Below are positions 1,392-14,227 of a stretch of 24,586 nucleotides of DNA, one piece after another. Both the position numbers and the translations under genes were made by a program. This DNA is from a virus (lineage: Duplodnaviria; Heunggongvirae; Uroviricota; Caudoviricetes): the IMG/VR virus record IMGVR_UViG_2939142107_000008. The stretch is one strand, 5' to 3'. Below the pieces are notes generated by a model that did no database searches, had not been told where the DNA came from, and worked only from the letters and a program-made list of their open reading frames with translations. Each line of letters starts with the position of its first letter. Within the stretch, counting starts at the first letter, position 1.

Positions 1392-1925
1392 TTAAAATAC
1401 GGTGAATACATCACACAGGTCCGATAAAACTTCTCGACAAACATGCCTATGATCGCTGAGCACAGAGTTTATATGCTGAAGTGTTATATACTCTTCATAC
1501 CATTCTTGTGTTACAACATTTTTCAAATTATAGAGCCTGTGAAATGACTCTTTTGCCTCCTGCGAATTAACAAATTGTTGATTATGCCCCATTAACCTCA
1601 TTAAAAACCCCTCCAAACAAAATGGTGAGGATTGAATGATTTGTATGTCTCTATTTCTAGCAGCAGATAGAGCATCAGTAGGTATTGCAAGGTCTGAGTC
1701 AATAAAAACAACTCTTTTATCAAAACTACCAGCATGGTTTATAGCAGCCATTATAGCTGATTTCGGTCCTCCACCGCCGGCATCATCTAACCTAACACTA
1801 AACCCTGCAGTCCTAGTTGTTAAGAGTCGTTTTAAACAATCAGCAAATCTTTTATCAGTAATTCCTTCGCACATCAAAAGCTTAGTTCGTTCAACTCCAC
1901 GCTTTACACGTCTGGGCTTCATCAT
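1392..1925 (-). CDS. RloB/Toprim-like small protein (177 aa), putative nuclease partner of upstream ATPase
   Basis: N-terminal LLMCEGITDKRF resembles the CEGxxTE motif I recall for RloB-family proteins; later VVFIDSD gives a Toprim-like E...DxD arrangement; start ATGATG overlaps stop of the ATPase gene (1922..1925), implying an operon. Confidence 0.5.
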   Translation of the reverse strand: MMKPRRVKRGVERTKLLMCEGITDKRFADCLKRLLTTRTAGFSVRLDDAGGGGPKSAIMAAINHAGSFDKRVVFIDSDLAIPTDALSAARNRDIQIIQSSPFCLEGFLMRLMGHNQQFVNSQEAKESFHRLYNLKNVVTQEWYEEYITLQHINSVLSDHRHVCREVLSDLCDVFTVF

Positions 1926-3196
1926 AAGTCTGGTACTCCTCCAAAAGCACCAGCTAAATATTTAGCCGCAATATTATCGTCGACTCGCGCCTCACTGGAT
2001 GGAAAATCATCAAGTCGATAACATTCACTTCTATTGAATTTTTTCTCAGTAATCAACACACGGTACTTACCCAAATAATTTATCAATTCGGGTTTATGAC
2101 AAGTAAAAATTAACTGTGCATGTAACGGGTTTGTTTCTTTACTGATAAACAACTCTAATATAGGTTTAACCATATGTGGGTGCAAATCATCACCAAGTTC
2201 ATCAATAAAGCATGCTGTTCCTTTTTTCAGACATTGCATAATATTATGCAATCTGATAAATGCACTTTGTGTTCCAGCAGATTCGAATGCAAAGGGTAAC
2301 TCAAACTTGGAACCATCTTCTTTTTCATGAATACCATTTATAATATAATAAACATCCTTCTCACCGTTTATATCAACTTTCTCTTCTTTTTCTATAGTTA
2401 TATCATCTAAACCTAAATCCCATTTGCGTAAAATATTTTTTACACTTTTAAAGGCTACTGGATCTTTATATAAATCCTCCGCTGTCGCACCTAAATCTCC
2501 ATAATCATAGCTATACCTTCCCATAGCATTTACATTAGTAGTACTGCTCATTTTTTCGGCTATATCTATAGCCAAAGGAACACCTACACGGCGAGCTGCA
2601 GAAATTATACTTGTATTAGCAGGAGTTCTCTTACCCTCTAAAAGACCTAAAGGAAAAAGTTCTGCTTTTTCAACATAATCATATTTAATTGTTTTTAACA
2701 GTTCTTCAACTTCTTGATGACTAAAATCATCACTACAATTATTTAACTGTTTCTCATAATTTTCTTTATCCAACTTCCTTTTAAAAACATAGATATTTTT
2801 ATTTTTCTCATTTCTTACATACAATTCTTCTTTAATGACAAAATGGTCGCAGGCCGTAACAACATATGTGTATACTTTTCCATCTAAAACAAAACATATT
2901 TTAATCATACCTGGTTTTGTAAAAGGCCGATTAATGTTTAAATACAGATAATCAGTTACTTTTGCTGGTATAGACCAAAAAAACCAACTCAAGAAAGACA
3001 TTGGTTTAAGGAGTGTTGTCTTACCGGAGGCGTTCGCCCCCATGATAGCAGTAATCAGATTGACCTTGTGTCCATCTACATCTACCCACAGTTCTTTTTT
3101 CTTATCTTTAGCTGTAGTAGTTAGGTCTACGAACCCACCTTCATCTTCAAAGCTACCGATATTCTTAATCTCATACCAAAGTATAGCGTTAGCCAT
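1922..3196 (-). CDS. ABC-type ATPase (AAA_15/AAA_21-like, 424 aa), OLD/AbiLi/PARIS-AriA-like
   Basis: Walker A GANASGKTT near N-terminus; distal FESAGTQSAF, Walker B-like ACFIDELGDD and downstream H (FTCHKPE) consistent with split ABC ATPase fold; RBS agagggg upstream of ATG; AT-rich. Confidence 0.6.
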   Translation of the reverse strand: MANAILWYEIKNIGSFEDEGGFVDLTTTAKDKKKELWVDVDGHKVNLITAIMGANASGKTTLLKPMSFLSWFFWSIPAKVTDYLYLNINRPFTKPGMIKICFVLDGKVYTYVVTACDHFVIKEELYVRNEKNKNIYVFKRKLDKENYEKQLNNCSDDFSHQEVEELLKTIKYDYVEKAELFPLGLLEGKRTPANTSIISAARRVGVPLAIDIAEKMSSTTNVNAMGRYSYDYGDLGATAEDLYKDPVAFKSVKNILRKWDLGLDDITIEKEEKVDINGEKDVYYIINGIHEKEDGSKFELPFAFESAGTQSAFIRLHNIMQCLKKGTACFIDELGDDLHPHMVKPILELFISKETNPLHAQLIFTCHKPELINYLGKYRVLITEKKFNRSECYRLDDFPSSEARVDDNIAAKYLAGAFGGVPDL

Positions 3197-9270: not shown

Positions 9271-10323
9271 TTATTTCCCCACCAGCTCGTTTATCTCTTT
9301 CACTGTCTGGTTAAACCGCTCTGACTCAAGCTCAACACCTAAGGCCCGACGCCCCAGCGCCATTGCTGCTTTTATTGTGGAACCGGATCCCATAAAAAAA
9401 TCAGCAACCAGATCACCTGGTCGACTACTGGCATTGATTATTTGCCTGAGCATATCCGCCGGTTTCTCACACGGATGTTTCCCCGGGTAGAACTGAACGG
9501 GTTTATGCATCCAGACATCGGTATAAGGCACGGAGACTGATACGGAGAAATAGCGCCGGAGAGATTTAAACTCATCCAGCAATTCAGAATATTTGCGATT
9601 CAGTGAATCATAAGATGCCACCAGCTGGTGGTGTGGTTGTTCCAGTTGTTGTTCCTGAAACTTCTCTGCCGCTATACGGGAAAACAGTGCCTGTAACTTC
9701 CGATAGTCAGCCTCATTCGGCAACTGCCACTGACTGGCACCAAACCAGTGGGAAACCATATTTTTCTTACCTGTGGCTTCGGCAATTTGTTTTGCCGTTA
9801 CACCCAGTTCGGCACGAGCATCCCTGAAATACGATATCAGCGGTGCCATTATGTGCTGTTTGAGTTCCCTTTCTTTTGCCGCATAGCCGTCACTTTTGCC
9901 GCGATATGGTCCCTGGTAATGTTCAGCAAACAGAACGCGCTCTGTGGCAGGAAAATATGCGCGCAGACTTTCTTTATTACACCCATTCCAACGTCCGGAC
10001 GGCTTCGCCCAGATGATATGGTTAAGCACGTTGAAACGTTCACGCATCATGATCTCAATATCAGATGCCAGGCGATGCCCACAGAACAGGTAAAGGCTTC
10101 CGGCAGGTTTCAACACCCGCCAGAACTGGGCCAGACAGTGGTCCAGCCACTTAAGGTAATCTTCGTCCCCTTTCCACTGATTGTCCCAACCGTTGGGTTT
10201 CACCTTGAAGTAAGGCGGATCGGTAACAATCAGGTCAATGGAATCATCAGGCAGGGACTGAATAAAATGCAGGCAATCAGCGTTGATTAAATCAACACTG
10301 TTTATTTTTACAGTATTTTTCAT
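9271..10323 (-). CDS. DNA methyltransferase, N6-adenine/N4-cytosine class (beta-type, DPPY then FxGxG), phage orphan Dam-like
   Basis: IVTDPPYF (motif IV) in N-terminal region and FFMGSGST (motif I) near C-terminus; no adjacent restriction gene. Confidence 0.8.
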
Positions 10324-10472: not shown

Positions 10473-10667
10473 TCATTGCTGAAGGCGTCTGTAACAGCCG
10501 AACTGGTAATCTGCCAGCCCCGCCATAACCAACTGGGTCAGTATTAACTGACAGCGTTCGCGTGAAAGATATGTGTTTTGTGCAATCTCCCCGACTGTTG
10601 CCGGTTCGATGCTTAATTCATTAAAAACAACTTTCGCCGTTTCTGTCATATCTTGCTGTTTTAGCAT
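10473..10667 (-). CDS. Small hypothetical protein (64 aa from MLKQQ start)
   Basis: ORF with AGGAAA RBS before internal ATG; longer ORF-track start at 10691 also possible. Confidence 0.35.
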   Translation of the reverse strand: MLKQQDMTETAKVVFNELSIEPATVGEIAQNTYLSRERCQLILTQLVMAGLADYQFGCYRRLQQ

Positions 10668-10790
10668 GTCTTTTTTCCTTCTGGTTAACATGACATACCA
10701 ATAACTCTTGTCTAAAAAGCCAGCAAGATAAAAAGTCAGTATTCACGACCACCAGCGTGTTTACCGTACTGCACCAGGTTTACAGGTACA

Positions 10791-10815
10791 AAAAAACCCG
10801 CTCGACGGCGGGTTT
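10791..10815. terminator. Bidirectional rho-independent terminator-like hairpin
   Basis: A6-cccgc-tcgacg-gcggg-ttt; on the minus strand the stem is followed by a T6 run; sits at the left border of the AT-rich cargo cassette, upstream of the DUF262 gene. Confidence 0.55.
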
Positions 10816-10915
10816 AAGTTGTGTGGCGAAGTAACCACTCTTAACACAATACAATACTTTTTGCGTACGCGTTATAGTTTTCTTACAATCAACTTTCAAT
10901 TAAAGGAACGAAAAC

Positions 10916-12076
10916 ATGACTACACTCAAAGAACTCAAAGAAGAGCTTGCTCAGATACAAGATGAACACGCTAAGAACAGAAAAAAGGCTGAAATTGCAG
11001 CTTTAACCGCTTCCGCTGACAATGAAATCAGACTCGCTCAGAGAAACATTGGATACAATGTACGTGAGTGGACCGTTGAAGTCATTATTCAAAAGTATGG
11101 TGATAATATTGAAAATGACAAAAACGAGCTTTTTATTCCAGATTATCAACGTGATTACAAGTGGGATACAAAAACAGCCTCTCGCTTTATAGAAAGTATT
11201 CTATTAGACTTTCCAATACCTTACCTTTACATTGCTGATGTATTTAATGAAGACCCTGAATTAGATGGTAGGGTAGAAATCATTGATGGTTCACAACGGA
11301 TACGCTCTATTTATTATTTTTGGAACGATCAATTTGAGTTAAAGGATTTGAAAGAGCTTAAAAGTTTAGAAGGTTTCAAATTTTCAGATCTTTTAGCTAG
11401 CCGCCAAAGAAGATTTTTAAGAGCTTCACTAAGATTTATTGAGTTGAAAGGTGATGTTGAGGAACAACATAGAAGAGATTTATTTGAAAGGATCAACTCA
11501 GGTGTTAAAAGATTAGAAGCGATGGAAGTGAGGCATGGCTCAGATGCTGCTACCTCAATGTTCTATAAAGATGTTGTGACCCCATGCTCAACAAACTCAC
11601 TTTTTTCCCAACTAGCTCCATTATCAGACCGGAAACGGTCGAATGGCGATCATCGTGAGTTAGTTTTGAGATTTTTTGCATATTTAAATGATTTAGAAAA
11701 CTATAAGGGATTTGTCCGTCCCTTTATTGATAATTATTTAAATGAACAAGCAGCAGCTGTGACTACTCAACAAGATGTTGATAATTTTAAACATGATTTT
11801 GAAATGATGCTTGCTTTTGTTGCTACCCATTTCCCTATTGGCTTTAAAAAGACCGCAACAAGTAAAACCACCCCACGAGCCAGATACGAAGCCATTGCCG
11901 TGGGAACTGCACTTGCATTAAAAACTAACCCACAACTCCAGAGTCCAGCCGTACCTGTAGGTGAATGGCTATTTGAAGAGGAATTTGAAACACTTGTTAC
12001 TGCTGATAGTGCAAACAATACCAGCCAGCTAAAAAACAGAATCTTTTACGTTAAAAATAAGTTGTTAGGGATTTAA
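10916..12076 (+). CDS. DUF262 (ParB/Srx-like) domain protein, 386 aa, lacking the DUF1524/HNH nuclease half
   Basis: FIPDYQRDYKW and IIDGSQR correspond to the two signature motifs (QRxxxW and DGQQR) of DUF262 as found in GmrSD/SspE/BrxU N-terminal domains; no His-Me/HNH motif in C-terminal half; AGGA RBS; AT-rich. Confidence 0.7.
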   Translation: MTTLKELKEELAQIQDEHAKNRKKAEIAALTASADNEIRLAQRNIGYNVREWTVEVIIQKYGDNIENDKNELFIPDYQRDYKWDTKTASRFIESILLDFPIPYLYIADVFNEDPELDGRVEIIDGSQRIRSIYYFWNDQFELKDLKELKSLEGFKFSDLLASRQRRFLRASLRFIELKGDVEEQHRRDLFERINSGVKRLEAMEVRHGSDAATSMFYKDVVTPCSTNSLFSQLAPLSDRKRSNGDHRELVLRFFAYLNDLENYKGFVRPFIDNYLNEQAAAVTTQQDVDNFKHDFEMMLAFVATHFPIGFKKTATSKTTPRARYEAIAVGTALALKTNPQLQSPAVPVGEWLFEEEFETLVTADSANNTSQLKNRIFYVKNKLLGI

Positions 12077-12078
12077 AA

Positions 12079-12768
12079 ATGAGTCTAATTGATTTACGAG
12101 ATGAATATGAAGAAAGAGCAAGAGACATTATGGAACTGCTTTCTCTTGCATCATCTATAGAGATTCATACTCAGCAGTTAGATCCGCAAGCGCATCAAGA
12201 TGAAATAGAATCTAATATCCTAAGGGTAAATATTTTAAAATCATCCGTTCATATGATGCTATATAATCAAGTTGAAAATACTGCCAGAGGTTGCATCGAG
12301 TCAATTTATGATCATTTACAAGATAATGAGGTGAATTACGCATCACTCAGGGAGAAGCTTCAAGTAAATATATTACATAGAATTGTTTCAGATAATGAAA
12401 CAGGGCAATCCCTTTATAAAAAGATAGGCACTGACATTTCCAAAAGAATAATTTCAGCCTCATTGAATATTCGTAAAGAATTCAATGGTAATGTTTGCAA
12501 GCCTGTATTACACAAAATAACGCAGGCTTACGGAATAACTATCGCAAACTCACCTGAATGTAGAAATGGTATTGACTTAGACTTGCTTAAGGATATCAGA
12601 AACGAACTCGCGCATGGAAGTACTAGCTTCTCTAAAAAGGGGCAAATTGACCCCTTAGAAGAAGTTAAGTCTAGAGCAGAGAGAGTTGATCTATATCTTC
12701 GTTTATTAATAAACTCAACTGAAGATTATATTATCTCTAACGGATATTTATCCCCTCAACATGCCTAA
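12079..12768 (+). CDS. HEPN-like protein (229 aa), putative RNase/effector partner of DUF262 protein
   Basis: RNELAH near C-terminus fits the HEPN Rx4-6H motif; gene starts 3 nt after DUF262 stop (operon); 3' end overlaps convergent MTase by about 32 nt. Confidence 0.5.
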   Translation: MSLIDLRDEYEERARDIMELLSLASSIEIHTQQLDPQAHQDEIESNILRVNILKSSVHMMLYNQVENTARGCIESIYDHLQDNEVNYASLREKLQVNILHRIVSDNETGQSLYKKIGTDISKRIISASLNIRKEFNGNVCKPVLHKITQAYGITIANSPECRNGIDLDLLKDIRNELAHGSTSFSKKGQIDPLEEVKSRAERVDLYLRLLINSTEDYIISNGYLSPQHA

Positions 12769-13777
12769 CAAACGTTCTCCCTATTACTTGGCCAATTATA
12801 GGGGGAACAGCATTACCAATCATCGTTCCTAACTTTTGGAATGAAAAAGGCGTATTTTTTCCAATAAATTTATAATCCATAGGAAAAGATTGTAAAATAG
12901 CAGCTTCACGCAAAGTTATTGCTCTATTTTGCTCAGGATGTCCGAATCGCCCATTACCATATCCATAACATTGGGTAGTTATTGTAGGACTAGTATCGTC
13001 CCAAACCATCCGTCCATAAACACTTTTATAGGTAGCACCTGAATGCTTTTTATGGCAATCCGCTCTAATTTCTTCAGGCCAATCATCCCACGTACCACCT
13101 GGTAAAGAGTGCAAGATTCGTTTAAGGTTAATATCCCTTAATTTAGGCGAACGATGCAATGGATCACTTTCGAGTTTCTCCCCTGCACCTATTTTTGGCA
13201 ACTGACCAATAGCATCCTTTACTGTAACTTTACGGCTTACTTTTTTTTGATCAAGGCTGATTGGCCCCAATATGGACCCAATTAGAATTAATCTACGTCT
13301 ATTTTGAGGCAAGCCATACTCGGAACATTTTACAACGTCGTACCACAGATGATACCCAAGAGTCTTTAATACACTAACAAACTCTTCAAAAACCTTATGA
13401 TTTCTAAGTTGAGGAACATTTTCCATAGTCACAAGCTCTGGCATGACATCACTTACAATCCTCTGAAACTCAGATAAAAGACGCCACTTTGTATCATCTT
13501 TTCTGCTATTTGGATTACGATACTTGGAAAACGGTTGGCAAGGGGCACAGCCTGCAAGTAATCTAATATTTCCTTCCTTGAACATAGCAGACACATCGCT
13601 GGATTGCAGTTCAGTAACTGACTGGTTAATGAACTTCGTTAAGGGATTATTGCTCTCAATAGCGAAACGGCAGGACTCATCAATATCAATGCCATGAGAA
13701 ACTTCAATCCCGGCTTTTTTTAGCCCAAAAGTTAAGCCCCCTGCGCCACAAAAAATGTCTACTGCTTGAATGTTCAC
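12737..13777 (-). CDS. DNA (cytosine-5) methyltransferase (346 aa)
   Basis: Motif I FCGAGG, motif IV GCAPCQPFS (PCQ), motif VI MENVPQL (ENV), motif VIII LPQNRRR; GTG start with GGAG RBS; AT-rich relative to phage core. Confidence 0.85.
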   Translation of the reverse strand: MNIQAVDIFCGAGGLTFGLKKAGIEVSHGIDIDESCRFAIESNNPLTKFINQSVTELQSSDVSAMFKEGNIRLLAGCAPCQPFSKYRNPNSRKDDTKWRLLSEFQRIVSDVMPELVTMENVPQLRNHKVFEEFVSVLKTLGYHLWYDVVKCSEYGLPQNRRRLILIGSILGPISLDQKKVSRKVTVKDAIGQLPKIGAGEKLESDPLHRSPKLRDINLKRILHSLPGGTWDDWPEEIRADCHKKHSGATYKSVYGRMVWDDTSPTITTQCYGYGNGRFGHPEQNRAITLREAAILQSFPMDYKFIGKNTPFSFQKLGTMIGNAVPPIIGQVIGRTFVRHVEGINIR

Positions 13778-13856
13778 AAGATTCTCCGTTACTTTACCCT
13801 GGTATTATATACACATAAAAGTTGGGAAAGTAGAATGATTTTACATAGCACTTAAC
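13778..13856 (-). promoter_or_regulatory. Candidate late promoter (pR'-like) and qut region downstream of Q
   Basis: Perfect TATAAT on minus strand (plus coordinates 13804..13809) in the short Q-to-cargo spacer; -35 is poor, as expected for a Q-dependent promoter; placement by analogy with lambdoid pR'. Confidence 0.35.
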
Positions 13857-14210
13857 TCATTGTATTAAATAAAAAAATGACAAGCATCCATCAATAAACC
13901 CCATAGCTGTTTGCATATCTTTTCGAACTGTTCCGTCTGAACATTTCCGCTTCTTTGCAATTGTACGGAGCGAAATGCCAACAACAAAGTGAGCAATTAT
14001 CAGCTCATACTCTGCCGGCTTGTATTTACGCAACCTAGCGACACAACCGTCTATTATGATGCCCTCATCATCATCGCACTGAATCCGGGACTTTCTGCCA
14101 TGAGGTAAAAGCCGCTTGAAGCCAGCAGCTACCGGTTGCCAGTCCACACCACTGTTTTCTGCAGCAGCCCATGCCCCCCAGCGGTCCAAAACTTCATACA
14201 TATCACGCAT
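13857..14210 (-). CDS. Antitermination protein Q, QuuD-type (about 118 aa)
   Basis: MRDMYEVLDRWGAWAA...AAGFK...CDDDEGIIIDGCVARL...CSDG matches my recollection of DLP12 QuuD (MRDIQMVLERWGAWAA...); start trimmed to the MRD methionine. Confidence 0.7.
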   Translation of the reverse strand: MRDMYEVLDRWGAWAAAENSGVDWQPVAAGFKRLLPHGRKSRIQCDDDEGIIIDGCVARLRKYKPAEYELIIAHFVVGISLRTIAKKRKCSDGTVRKDMQTAMGFIDGCLSFFYLIQ

Positions 14211-14227
14211 CAACTTTCTCCACAAAA

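Follow-up and report, generated by a model that had tools for sequence, protein, structure and literature searches.

What does the AT-rich cargo between the antiterminator gene Q and the lysis genes of IMG/VR virus record IMGVR_UViG_2939142107_000008 encode, and do its genes act together? The record, a stretch of 24,586 nucleotides (nt) assigned to the Caudoviricetes, is referred to here as the window. It is an Escherichia coli lambdoid prophage integrated at tRNA-Thr beside proA, and the 3.2 kb queried are 100% identical to E. coli AR437 and many further strains. The cargo consists of a gene for a DUF262 protein (A), a gene for a HEPN protein (B), and a convergent gene for a C5-cytosine DNA methyltransferase (M), which very probably constitute one functional three-gene defence module. 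An initial annotation, made from the sequence alone, had taken the block for a candidate undescribed system. This part of the proposal was not upheld, since the triad MAE_28990 HEPN/ParB/DNA methylase is already listed in Table 1 of Anantharaman et al. 2013 (PMC3710099), RefSeq names B a "MAE_28990/MAE_18760 family HEPN-like nuclease", and a DUF262 plus HEPN pair, PD-T4-2, has been validated as a defence system. The cassette is a prophage-borne E. coli member of the family predicted in 2013 and is distantly related to PD-T4-2. Its parts are as follows.

10916..12076, plus strand: gene A, 386 amino acids (aa), DUF262/ParB-like protein (PF03235, GmrSD_N/DUF262)
12079..12768, plus strand: gene B, 229 aa, MAE_28990-family HEPN protein (PF18737, HEPN_MAE_28990)
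12737..13777, minus strand: gene M, 346 aa, C5-cytosine DNA methyltransferase with a GTG start (PF00145)
12737..12768, no strand assigned: convergent 3'-3' coding overlap of B and M, 32 nt, from the coordinates and the sequence
10875..13887, no strand assigned: AT-rich cargo cassette, 3.0 kb, with limits set from the homology to phage mEp460_4F5 and the GC profile

All three proteins pass the curated Pfam thresholds by wide margins. The DUF262 assignment of A, first made on the motifs FIPDYQRDYKW and IIDGSQR, is borne out by PF03235 (E 5.8e-26, 92 bits, cutoff 33), with features far above chance; the motif FERIN is also present, and QRxxxW, DGSQR, and FERIN are at least 95% conserved among 79 homologues. 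The top PADLOC match of A is NsnA (E 5.9e-45, residues 14-315), a component of the Menshen system whose C-terminal region was named ParBDB and predicted to bind DNA (Li et al. 2025, PMC12065111). This best match points to a ParB-DUF262 plus ParBDB sensor architecture in A, as in NsnA. The PADLOC model PD-T4-2_A also matches A (E 4.6e-27), with a score below that of NsnA, and the matches to SspE, Orf5, and HEC-05/06 are confined to the DUF262 part of A (the first ~70 to ~210 residues), reaching model positions up to ~106 of 530-790. NCBIfam gave no match for A or B, the Pfam scan found no PD-(D/E)xK, HNH, GIY-YIG, or PLD domains, and no nuclease fold was recognised in the C-terminal half of A by Pfam or by Foldseek against the PDB. 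The AlphaFold2 model of A has a mean predicted local distance difference test (pLDDT) score of 79.5, and its best Foldseek matches in the PDB were BrxU (E 0.012), SspE, and ParB; none reached the significance threshold of E<=0.001, and no fold-level conclusion is drawn for A or B. A is thus predicted to combine a DUF262 nucleoside triphosphatase (NTPase) domain with a helical C-terminal region resembling that of NsnA (ParBDB-like), and to act as a sensor of DNA or of its modification.

Gene B starts 2 nt after the stop codon of A, and its recognition as an Rx4H-type HEPN protein is supported by PF18737 (E 2.9e-17, 64 bits, gathering score 26.8), which covers residues 6-223 of 229; the second Pfam match is PF18735 (E 1.4e-7). 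The Rx4H motif is RNELAH at residues 174-179 (R174, H179), and among 70 homologues RN.LAHG is at least 95% conserved, with FNGN conserved as well. Both PF18737 and the RefSeq product name go back to the family of Anantharaman et al. 2013, and cyanobacterial members of the B family score 141-173 bits on this profile. A profile search with B yielded 1280 representative clusters (50% identity, E<=1e-3), and among the 150 clusters listed nearly all are standalone proteins of ~205-260 aa. PADLOC had no match for B, even at E<=10, or for five of its homologues. The AlphaFold2 model of B has a pLDDT of 72.3, with the middle third below 50, and Foldseek searches against the PDB returned generic helical bundles only, none of them significant. 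From its family and motif, B is predicted to be a ribonuclease (RNase) effector. An occasional loss of B activity is suggested by several E. coli assemblies whose annotation splits the HEPN gene into two pieces, of 95 aa and 91 aa, on one chromosome.

Gene M encodes a complete C5-cytosine methyltransferase (MTase) on the opposite strand, in agreement with the initial annotation. It matches PF00145 over its full length (E 2.7e-54), scores above the cutoff of TIGR00675, and contains FCGAGG, PCQ, ENV, QNRRR, and GNAVPP, with motifs I, IV, VI, VIII, and X all present. Its PADLOC matches are MTase_II (1.2e-88) and DrmMII (7.7e-85, 283 bits). Relatives of M in the PDB (Dnmt1, M.HaeIII) match in the catalytic core only, and the variable region containing the target recognition domain (TRD) is conserved among the orthologues of M. 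The overlap of about 32 nt that had been noted between the 3' ends of the MTase and HEPN genes was recovered exactly, at the coordinates listed above.

The case for a single module comes from comparing the locus with its relatives. We surveyed 80 species-level loci from other species that encode a relative of A with 38-59% identity, counting as orthologues of M those MTases with a phmmer E<1e-80. In 75 of the 80 loci, the gene directly downstream of A is a homologue of B, usually with overlapping start and stop codons or a gap of a few nt (-20 to +9 nt in most), and an M orthologue adjoins A-B in 37, so that the association seen in the prophage recurs in the genomic neighbourhoods of DUF262 homologues. 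The M orthologue is convergent with B in 31 loci, upstream on the same strand in four, and downstream on the same strand in one; the 3' ends of the convergent genes overlap by 4-65 nt in 21 of the 31. At six other loci, a C5 MTase that is not an M orthologue adjoins A-B or lies close downstream. The hosts of the surveyed loci include Pseudomonas, Vibrio, Tatumella, methanotrophs, Planctomycetes, Bacteroidales, and many cyanobacteria, and the loci with an M orthologue span Gammaproteobacteria, Cyanobacteria, Planctomycetes, and Bacteroidales. In a neighbour-joining tree of A, a single large cyanobacterial clade of ~30 loci is the only lineage without MTase-bearing loci. The pairwise identities of the three proteins co-vary (A-B, r=0.93; A-M, r=0.88; 31 loci with all three genes at full length), with mean identities of 58% for M, 57% for A, and 44% for the faster-evolving B.

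The same unity is found within E. coli. The interior of the cassette was matched in 107 of 5426 complete E. coli genomes (~2%), none of which has less than 80% of the cassette. Two alleles exist, with >=99% and ~87% identity, and inspection of one locus per allele placed the cassette in the same slot of different lambdoid prophages, one of them in sequence type 131 (ST131), where the whole cassette has 86-87% identity. The same triad is also found in the P2-like coliphage P24B2 and in the Moraxella phages Mcat24-32. This combination of synteny, co-evolution, and all-or-none presence favours a functional link between the MTase and the DUF262/HEPN pair, as the initial annotation had considered. 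As a separate observation, the M gene of Peduovirus P24B2 (L082 2021-3041, minus strand) is disrupted by one frameshift, located at a GG run around codon 227, with both A and B intact; sequencing error, pseudogene formation, and phase variation are all conceivable explanations, and, if the frameshift is real, A-B is tolerated there without an active M.

A second line of evidence concerns the other partners of M. Using an alignment of the M orthologues derived from these loci as the query, we surveyed a further 80 loci on viral contigs (L088-L167) and found A-B beside the M-family MTase in 46 of them. On the remaining contigs the MTase has other neighbours, sometimes of more than one type per locus: a GHKL-ATPase protein in 19 loci (PADLOC REase_II model, E 3.8e-35), Vsr in 12, and the DrmD/DrmA SNF2 helicase of class 1 DISARM (~1500 bits) in five. 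The M family is thus a modification partner of other restriction modules. Compared to M, the partner-swapped MTases have full-length identities of 47-57% and identities of 49-68% in the variable/TRD region, with no sorting by partner, and the DISARM-adjacent orthologues, directly beside DrmD/DrmA, have 51-55% identity. The sole lead on the sequence recognised by M comes from a class 1 DISARM of Serratia, whose DrmMII, a possible orthologue of M, methylates MTCGAK (preprint 10.1101/2021.12.28.474362). Because its partners are swapped, the M-family MTase behaves as a portable self-marking module for various restriction-type effectors, with A-B in the "restriction" position. This partner swapping is the strongest, if still indirect, argument for M as the protective half of a restriction-modification (R-M)-like system.

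How might such a module work? The most likely mechanism, to which we assign a probability of roughly 0.45, is a methylation-gated DUF262 sensor that would unleash a HEPN RNase. In this mechanism, the three genes would form one R-M-like anti-phage module carried as prophage cargo, and M would methylate a fixed cytosine motif on host and prophage DNA as a self mark. A, with its ParB/DUF262 NTPase domain and ParBDB-like helical region, would survey DNA for unmarked phage or plasmid DNA, and on meeting it would bind or hydrolyse NTP and switch on B. As an Rx4H ribonuclease, B would then cut tRNA, rRNA, or mRNA, translation would stop, and the infection would be aborted. A and B would be produced from one tightly packed operon, probably with translational coupling, and the convergent position of M with overlapping 3' ends may balance the expression of the effector and the methylase.

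Several points weigh against this mechanism. The literature searched contains no experiment on any member of the triad family, and the structure models of A and B have no significant fold matches that would confirm the domain roles. The cyanobacterial clade mentioned above (~30 loci among L042-L081) is monophyletic and has no C5 MTase within 5 kb; its A-B pairs have intact DUF262 and Rx4H motifs and are set among housekeeping genes (e.g. clpB, aconitase-like). As PD-T4-2 also lacks a linked MTase, pairs of the A-B type are therefore not necessarily lethal without a methylase. HEPN proteins cut RNA, and we know of no precedent for coupling a read-out of DNA methylation to an RNase. Finally, A itself might be a ParB-type deoxyribonuclease (DNase), as assumed by Anantharaman et al. 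Carried to its full extent, the mechanism would describe an R-M system without a DNase, in which A would read a missing 5-methylcytosine mark and activate the HEPN RNase, the overlapping M gene would tune the effector-to-methylase ratio, and the MTase-less PD-T4-2 and cyanobacterial clade would be derived forms sensing something else; this extended proposal is doubtful, and we put it forward tentatively.

If A were indeed an endonuclease, the cassette would be a two-tier system following the PrrC paradigm. A would attack unmethylated DNA from which M protects the cell's own, and a latent B would be held inactive by A and released only once A has been disabled by an anti-restriction factor of the phage or the restriction arm has been swamped. 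This main rival, which we regard as rather unlikely, has its origin in the 2013 table entry and in the R-M section of the same paper, where a PrrC-like second-line suicide RNase was proposed for R-M-linked HEPN proteins generally (PMC3710099). A weak match of A to the PADLOC REase_II model PDLC03418, which is of similar length (E 7e-4; 1e-7 to 9e-7 for the P24B2 and Mcat homologues), points the same way, as does the pairing of the M family with bona fide restriction endonucleases at other loci, and the tight coupling of A and B is compatible with a physical complex. However, DUF262 is a modification sensor and NTPase in GmrSD, BrxU, and SspE (PMC12065111, PMC10952713), where cleavage needs a separate DUF1524 His-Me domain that is absent here, and the C-terminal half of A offers no recognisable nuclease fold in its place. 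The retention of B with A in nearly all surveyed loci (75/80) would also be unexpected for a mere back-up.

The absence of a linked MTase from PD-T4-2 and from the cyanobacterial clade is accommodated if A acts in a type IV-like manner, sensing modified phage cytosines (e.g. hydroxymethylated or glucosylated) as GmrSD and BrxU do and triggering B in response. Here M would not be a self-protection partner and would be kept for a different purpose, e.g. anti-restriction on behalf of the mobile element, decoy or priming methylation, or epigenetic regulation. In its favour, recognition of modified DNA is common to all characterised DUF262 defence proteins, T4 was the phage on which PD-T4-2 had been selected, and A-B can stand alone, as the cyanobacterial clade demonstrates. 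Yet this leaves unexplained the co-evolution of A with M, the conserved convergent overlap, the six replacements by another C5 MTase, and the all-or-none pattern in E. coli, and a sensor of modified cytosines beside a cytosine methylase risks autoimmunity; we consider it improbable, and more so than the two-tier system. That the locus holds two independent neighbouring morons, namely an orphan m5C methylase expressed from the late/Q region and a separate two-gene abortive-infection or toxin-antitoxin-like pair, as the initial annotation had also entertained, is highly improbable: the opposite strands, the known cargo hotspot, and the occurrence of the M family without A-B in ~29 of the 80 viral contigs are in its favour, but it is contradicted by synteny, co-varying identities, and all-or-none presence in E. 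coli, the cassette travels whole between prophages and across phyla, the 3' overlap recurs, and at loci without A-B the MTase is mostly found beside another restriction partner and not alone.

The cassette is real and conserved, and it is probably a functional R-M-like defence cassette; its value is as a tractable system in which to study how a DUF262 sensor works together with a methylase and a HEPN RNase. Should the methylase gate the DUF262-HEPN pair, E. coli would offer a simple native three-gene system, amenable to genetics, for asking how DUF262 proteins read DNA modification and signal to a separate effector, a question that is also open for PD-T4-2, Menshen, and Dazbog. Methylation gating, if true, would add an RNA-targeting arm to the concept of restriction-modification, and an ordinary R-M pair with a back-up toxin would confirm the 2013 prediction. 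With the models of PADLOC-DB v2.0.0, A and B give no complete system call, and censuses of defence systems based on those models therefore likely miss the cassette.

The surroundings of the cassette are those of a lambdoid late region, with the following features as context.

13857..14225, minus strand: antiterminator gene Q, the upstream neighbour (PF06530, E 5.4e-46)
10794..10815, minus strand: lambdoid intrinsic terminator with an 8-bp stem and a T-run, downstream of the cassette in the sense of late transcription and outside the module
10473-10691: small open reading frame (ORF), conserved in the lambdoid late region (mEp460_4F5, Ayreon)

Homology to mEp460_4F5, a related lambdoid phage with other cargo in the slot, ends at 10874 and restarts at 13888. 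The block had been described as AT-rich, and its GC content is indeed 0.33-0.40 across 11001-14000 compared to 0.48-0.57 in the flanks. A bidirectional terminator had been proposed at its left boundary; the terminator exists, and it is the conserved late-leader terminator of lambdoid phages, which is also annotated at the corresponding position of phage Ayreon, but it was called on the minus strand only, so that its bidirectionality was not supported. On the minus strand, the order of late genes is Q, M, the opposite-strand A and B, the terminator, the small ORF, and an N6-adenine MTase gene, followed by holin and lysozyme genes as seen in a 100%-identical record. As the same frame of Q, terminator, small ORF, N6-adenine MTase, and holin houses different, unrelated cargo in mEp460_4F5 and Ayreon, it is a genuine moron slot, in line with the position between Q and the lysis genes recognised in the initial annotation.

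Rfam and tRNA scans found no RNA gene within the cassette, and a promoter scan remained at background (13 found vs. 11.4 expected), so no promoter is claimed. The gap between Q and the start of M is 79 nt (13778-13856) and contains a minus-strand TATAAT-like element. Between the stop codon of M and the strong terminator at 10794-10815 there is only one weak minus-strand terminator-like site (11724-11705, 6-bp stem), and hence antisense transcription from the Q/MTase side may run through B and A. The N6/N4 DNA methylase just downstream of the cassette (9271-10323, minus strand, 350 aa; PF01555, E 2.3e-42; PADLOC MTase_II, 6e-152) is conserved, like the small ORF, in the lambdoid late regions of mEp460_4F5 and Ayreon, and the prophage therefore codes for two DNA methylases. 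A further defence-like pair, also AT-rich, is found elsewhere in the prophage at 1392-3196 on the minus strand, comprising a 424-aa AAA ATPase (1922-3196; PADLOC AbiLi, E 2.5e-66) and an overlapping 177-aa ORF (1392-1925; PADLOC AbiLii, E 1.5e-9), which by these matches looks like an AbiL-type abortive-infection system.

Among known defence systems, several share single components with the cassette. DISARM has the methylase alone in common with it, M resembling DrmMII, and membership was dismissed given that no drmA/B/C/D genes are present in the cassette and its immediate flanks. A complete MTase is the type II R-M feature of the cassette, and the endonuclease side is represented by the weak PDLC03418 match of A alone. 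EcoprrI-PrrC, a type Ic R-M system with a latent HEPN anticodon nuclease, likewise links an R-M module to a HEPN RNase that targets host RNA during infection; however, PrrC has its own ABC ATPase and sits in a complete hsdMSR system, whereas the cassette has no recognised restriction endonuclease.

With GmrSD, BrxU, and SspE, the cassette shares an N-terminal DUF262 NTPase with the motifs QR..W, DGxQR, and F...N, and BrxU and SspE are the top, non-significant fold matches of A. It differs from them in lacking a DUF1524 His-Me nuclease, in having a separate HEPN partner, and in its linked methylase, which type IV enzymes do not need. A split GmrSD, as suggested in the initial annotation, and likewise BrxU and SspE, were rejected since neither A nor B has a Pfam match to a DUF1524/His-Me nuclease. 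Menshen (Millman 2022; Li et al. 2025) is similar through the ParB-DUF262 plus ParBDB architecture that A shares with NsnA, but the cassette lacks the ABC-ATPase NsnB and the inPIN-effector NsnC and has a HEPN gene downstream instead; Menshen was rejected because the six proteins scanned between 9271 and 14225 (from the N6-adenine MTase to Q) include no NsnB or NsnC match.

PD-lambda-5, annotated as "ParB/HEPN, methyltransferase", was described as a compact(ed) prophage-borne RM+Abi system with broad protection, and its methylase is active enough to need an mrr-deleted host (PMC9519451). Like the cassette, it combines a ParB-like domain, a HEPN domain, and a DNA methylase as prophage cargo, but its ParB and HEPN domains are fused, the former is of the ParBc type and not DUF262, and the methylase is a D12-class N6-adenine enzyme and not a C5 MTase. 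The PADLOC models of PD-lambda-5 gave no match for A or B, and none for M among the 25 of 61 matches listed. With separate proteins, a DUF262-type ParB-like domain, and a C5 MTase, the cassette does not belong to this system.

PD-T4-2, annotated "DUF262, HEPN", has been validated as a defence against T4 in K-12 as well as in its native strain, and the T4-selected systems of that study generally protected against T2 and T6 too (Vassallo et al. 2022, PMC9519451). Using the published lambda-red primer arm, we located the real PD-T4-2 locus in a complete genome, E. coli 2009C-3133 (L087 5968-7603), where a P4-like satellite at ssrA carries it between psu and int, and it encodes an A protein of 364 aa and a B protein of 167 aa, with no MTase. 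An exact 50-nt match to the start of PD-T4-2 occurs in 17 of the 5426 complete E. coli genomes. The likeness between PD-T4-2 (E. coli ECOR65, P4-like satellite) and the cassette lies in a two-gene operon with a DUF262 gene followed by a small HEPN gene of the RiboL-PSP/MAE_28990 clade, carried as cargo of an E. coli mobile element. PD-T4-2A, however, is 26% identical to A over 213 aa, indicating remote homology and not orthology, and PD-T4-2B (167 aa vs. 229 aa) has no detectable pairwise similarity to B (BLASTP E 1.4). PD-T4-2B matches PF18735 only, whereas the B proteins of the triad match PF18737 first, and the PADLOC PD-T4-2_B model had no match among the triad-family B proteins tested. 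Membership of the cassette in PD-T4-2 was rejected on the remote relationship of A and the undetectable relationship of B. In the literature searched, we found no mechanistic follow-up on PD-T4-2 or PD-lambda-5.

The closest relative is thus the MAE_28990 family itself, which no paper other than Anantharaman et al. 2013 mentions in the literature searched. Its entry there is a single table line with a generic hypothesis on R-M-linked HEPN proteins, without experiments or prophage context and without an analysis of MTase orthology, partner swapping, or the MTase-less clade. In its composition, the cassette has every feature of this family, namely the PF18737 HEPN protein with its Rx4-6H motif, the adjacent gene of the DUF262/ParB superfamily, and the adjacent DNA methylase, and the two share the same three-gene architecture with no architectural difference.

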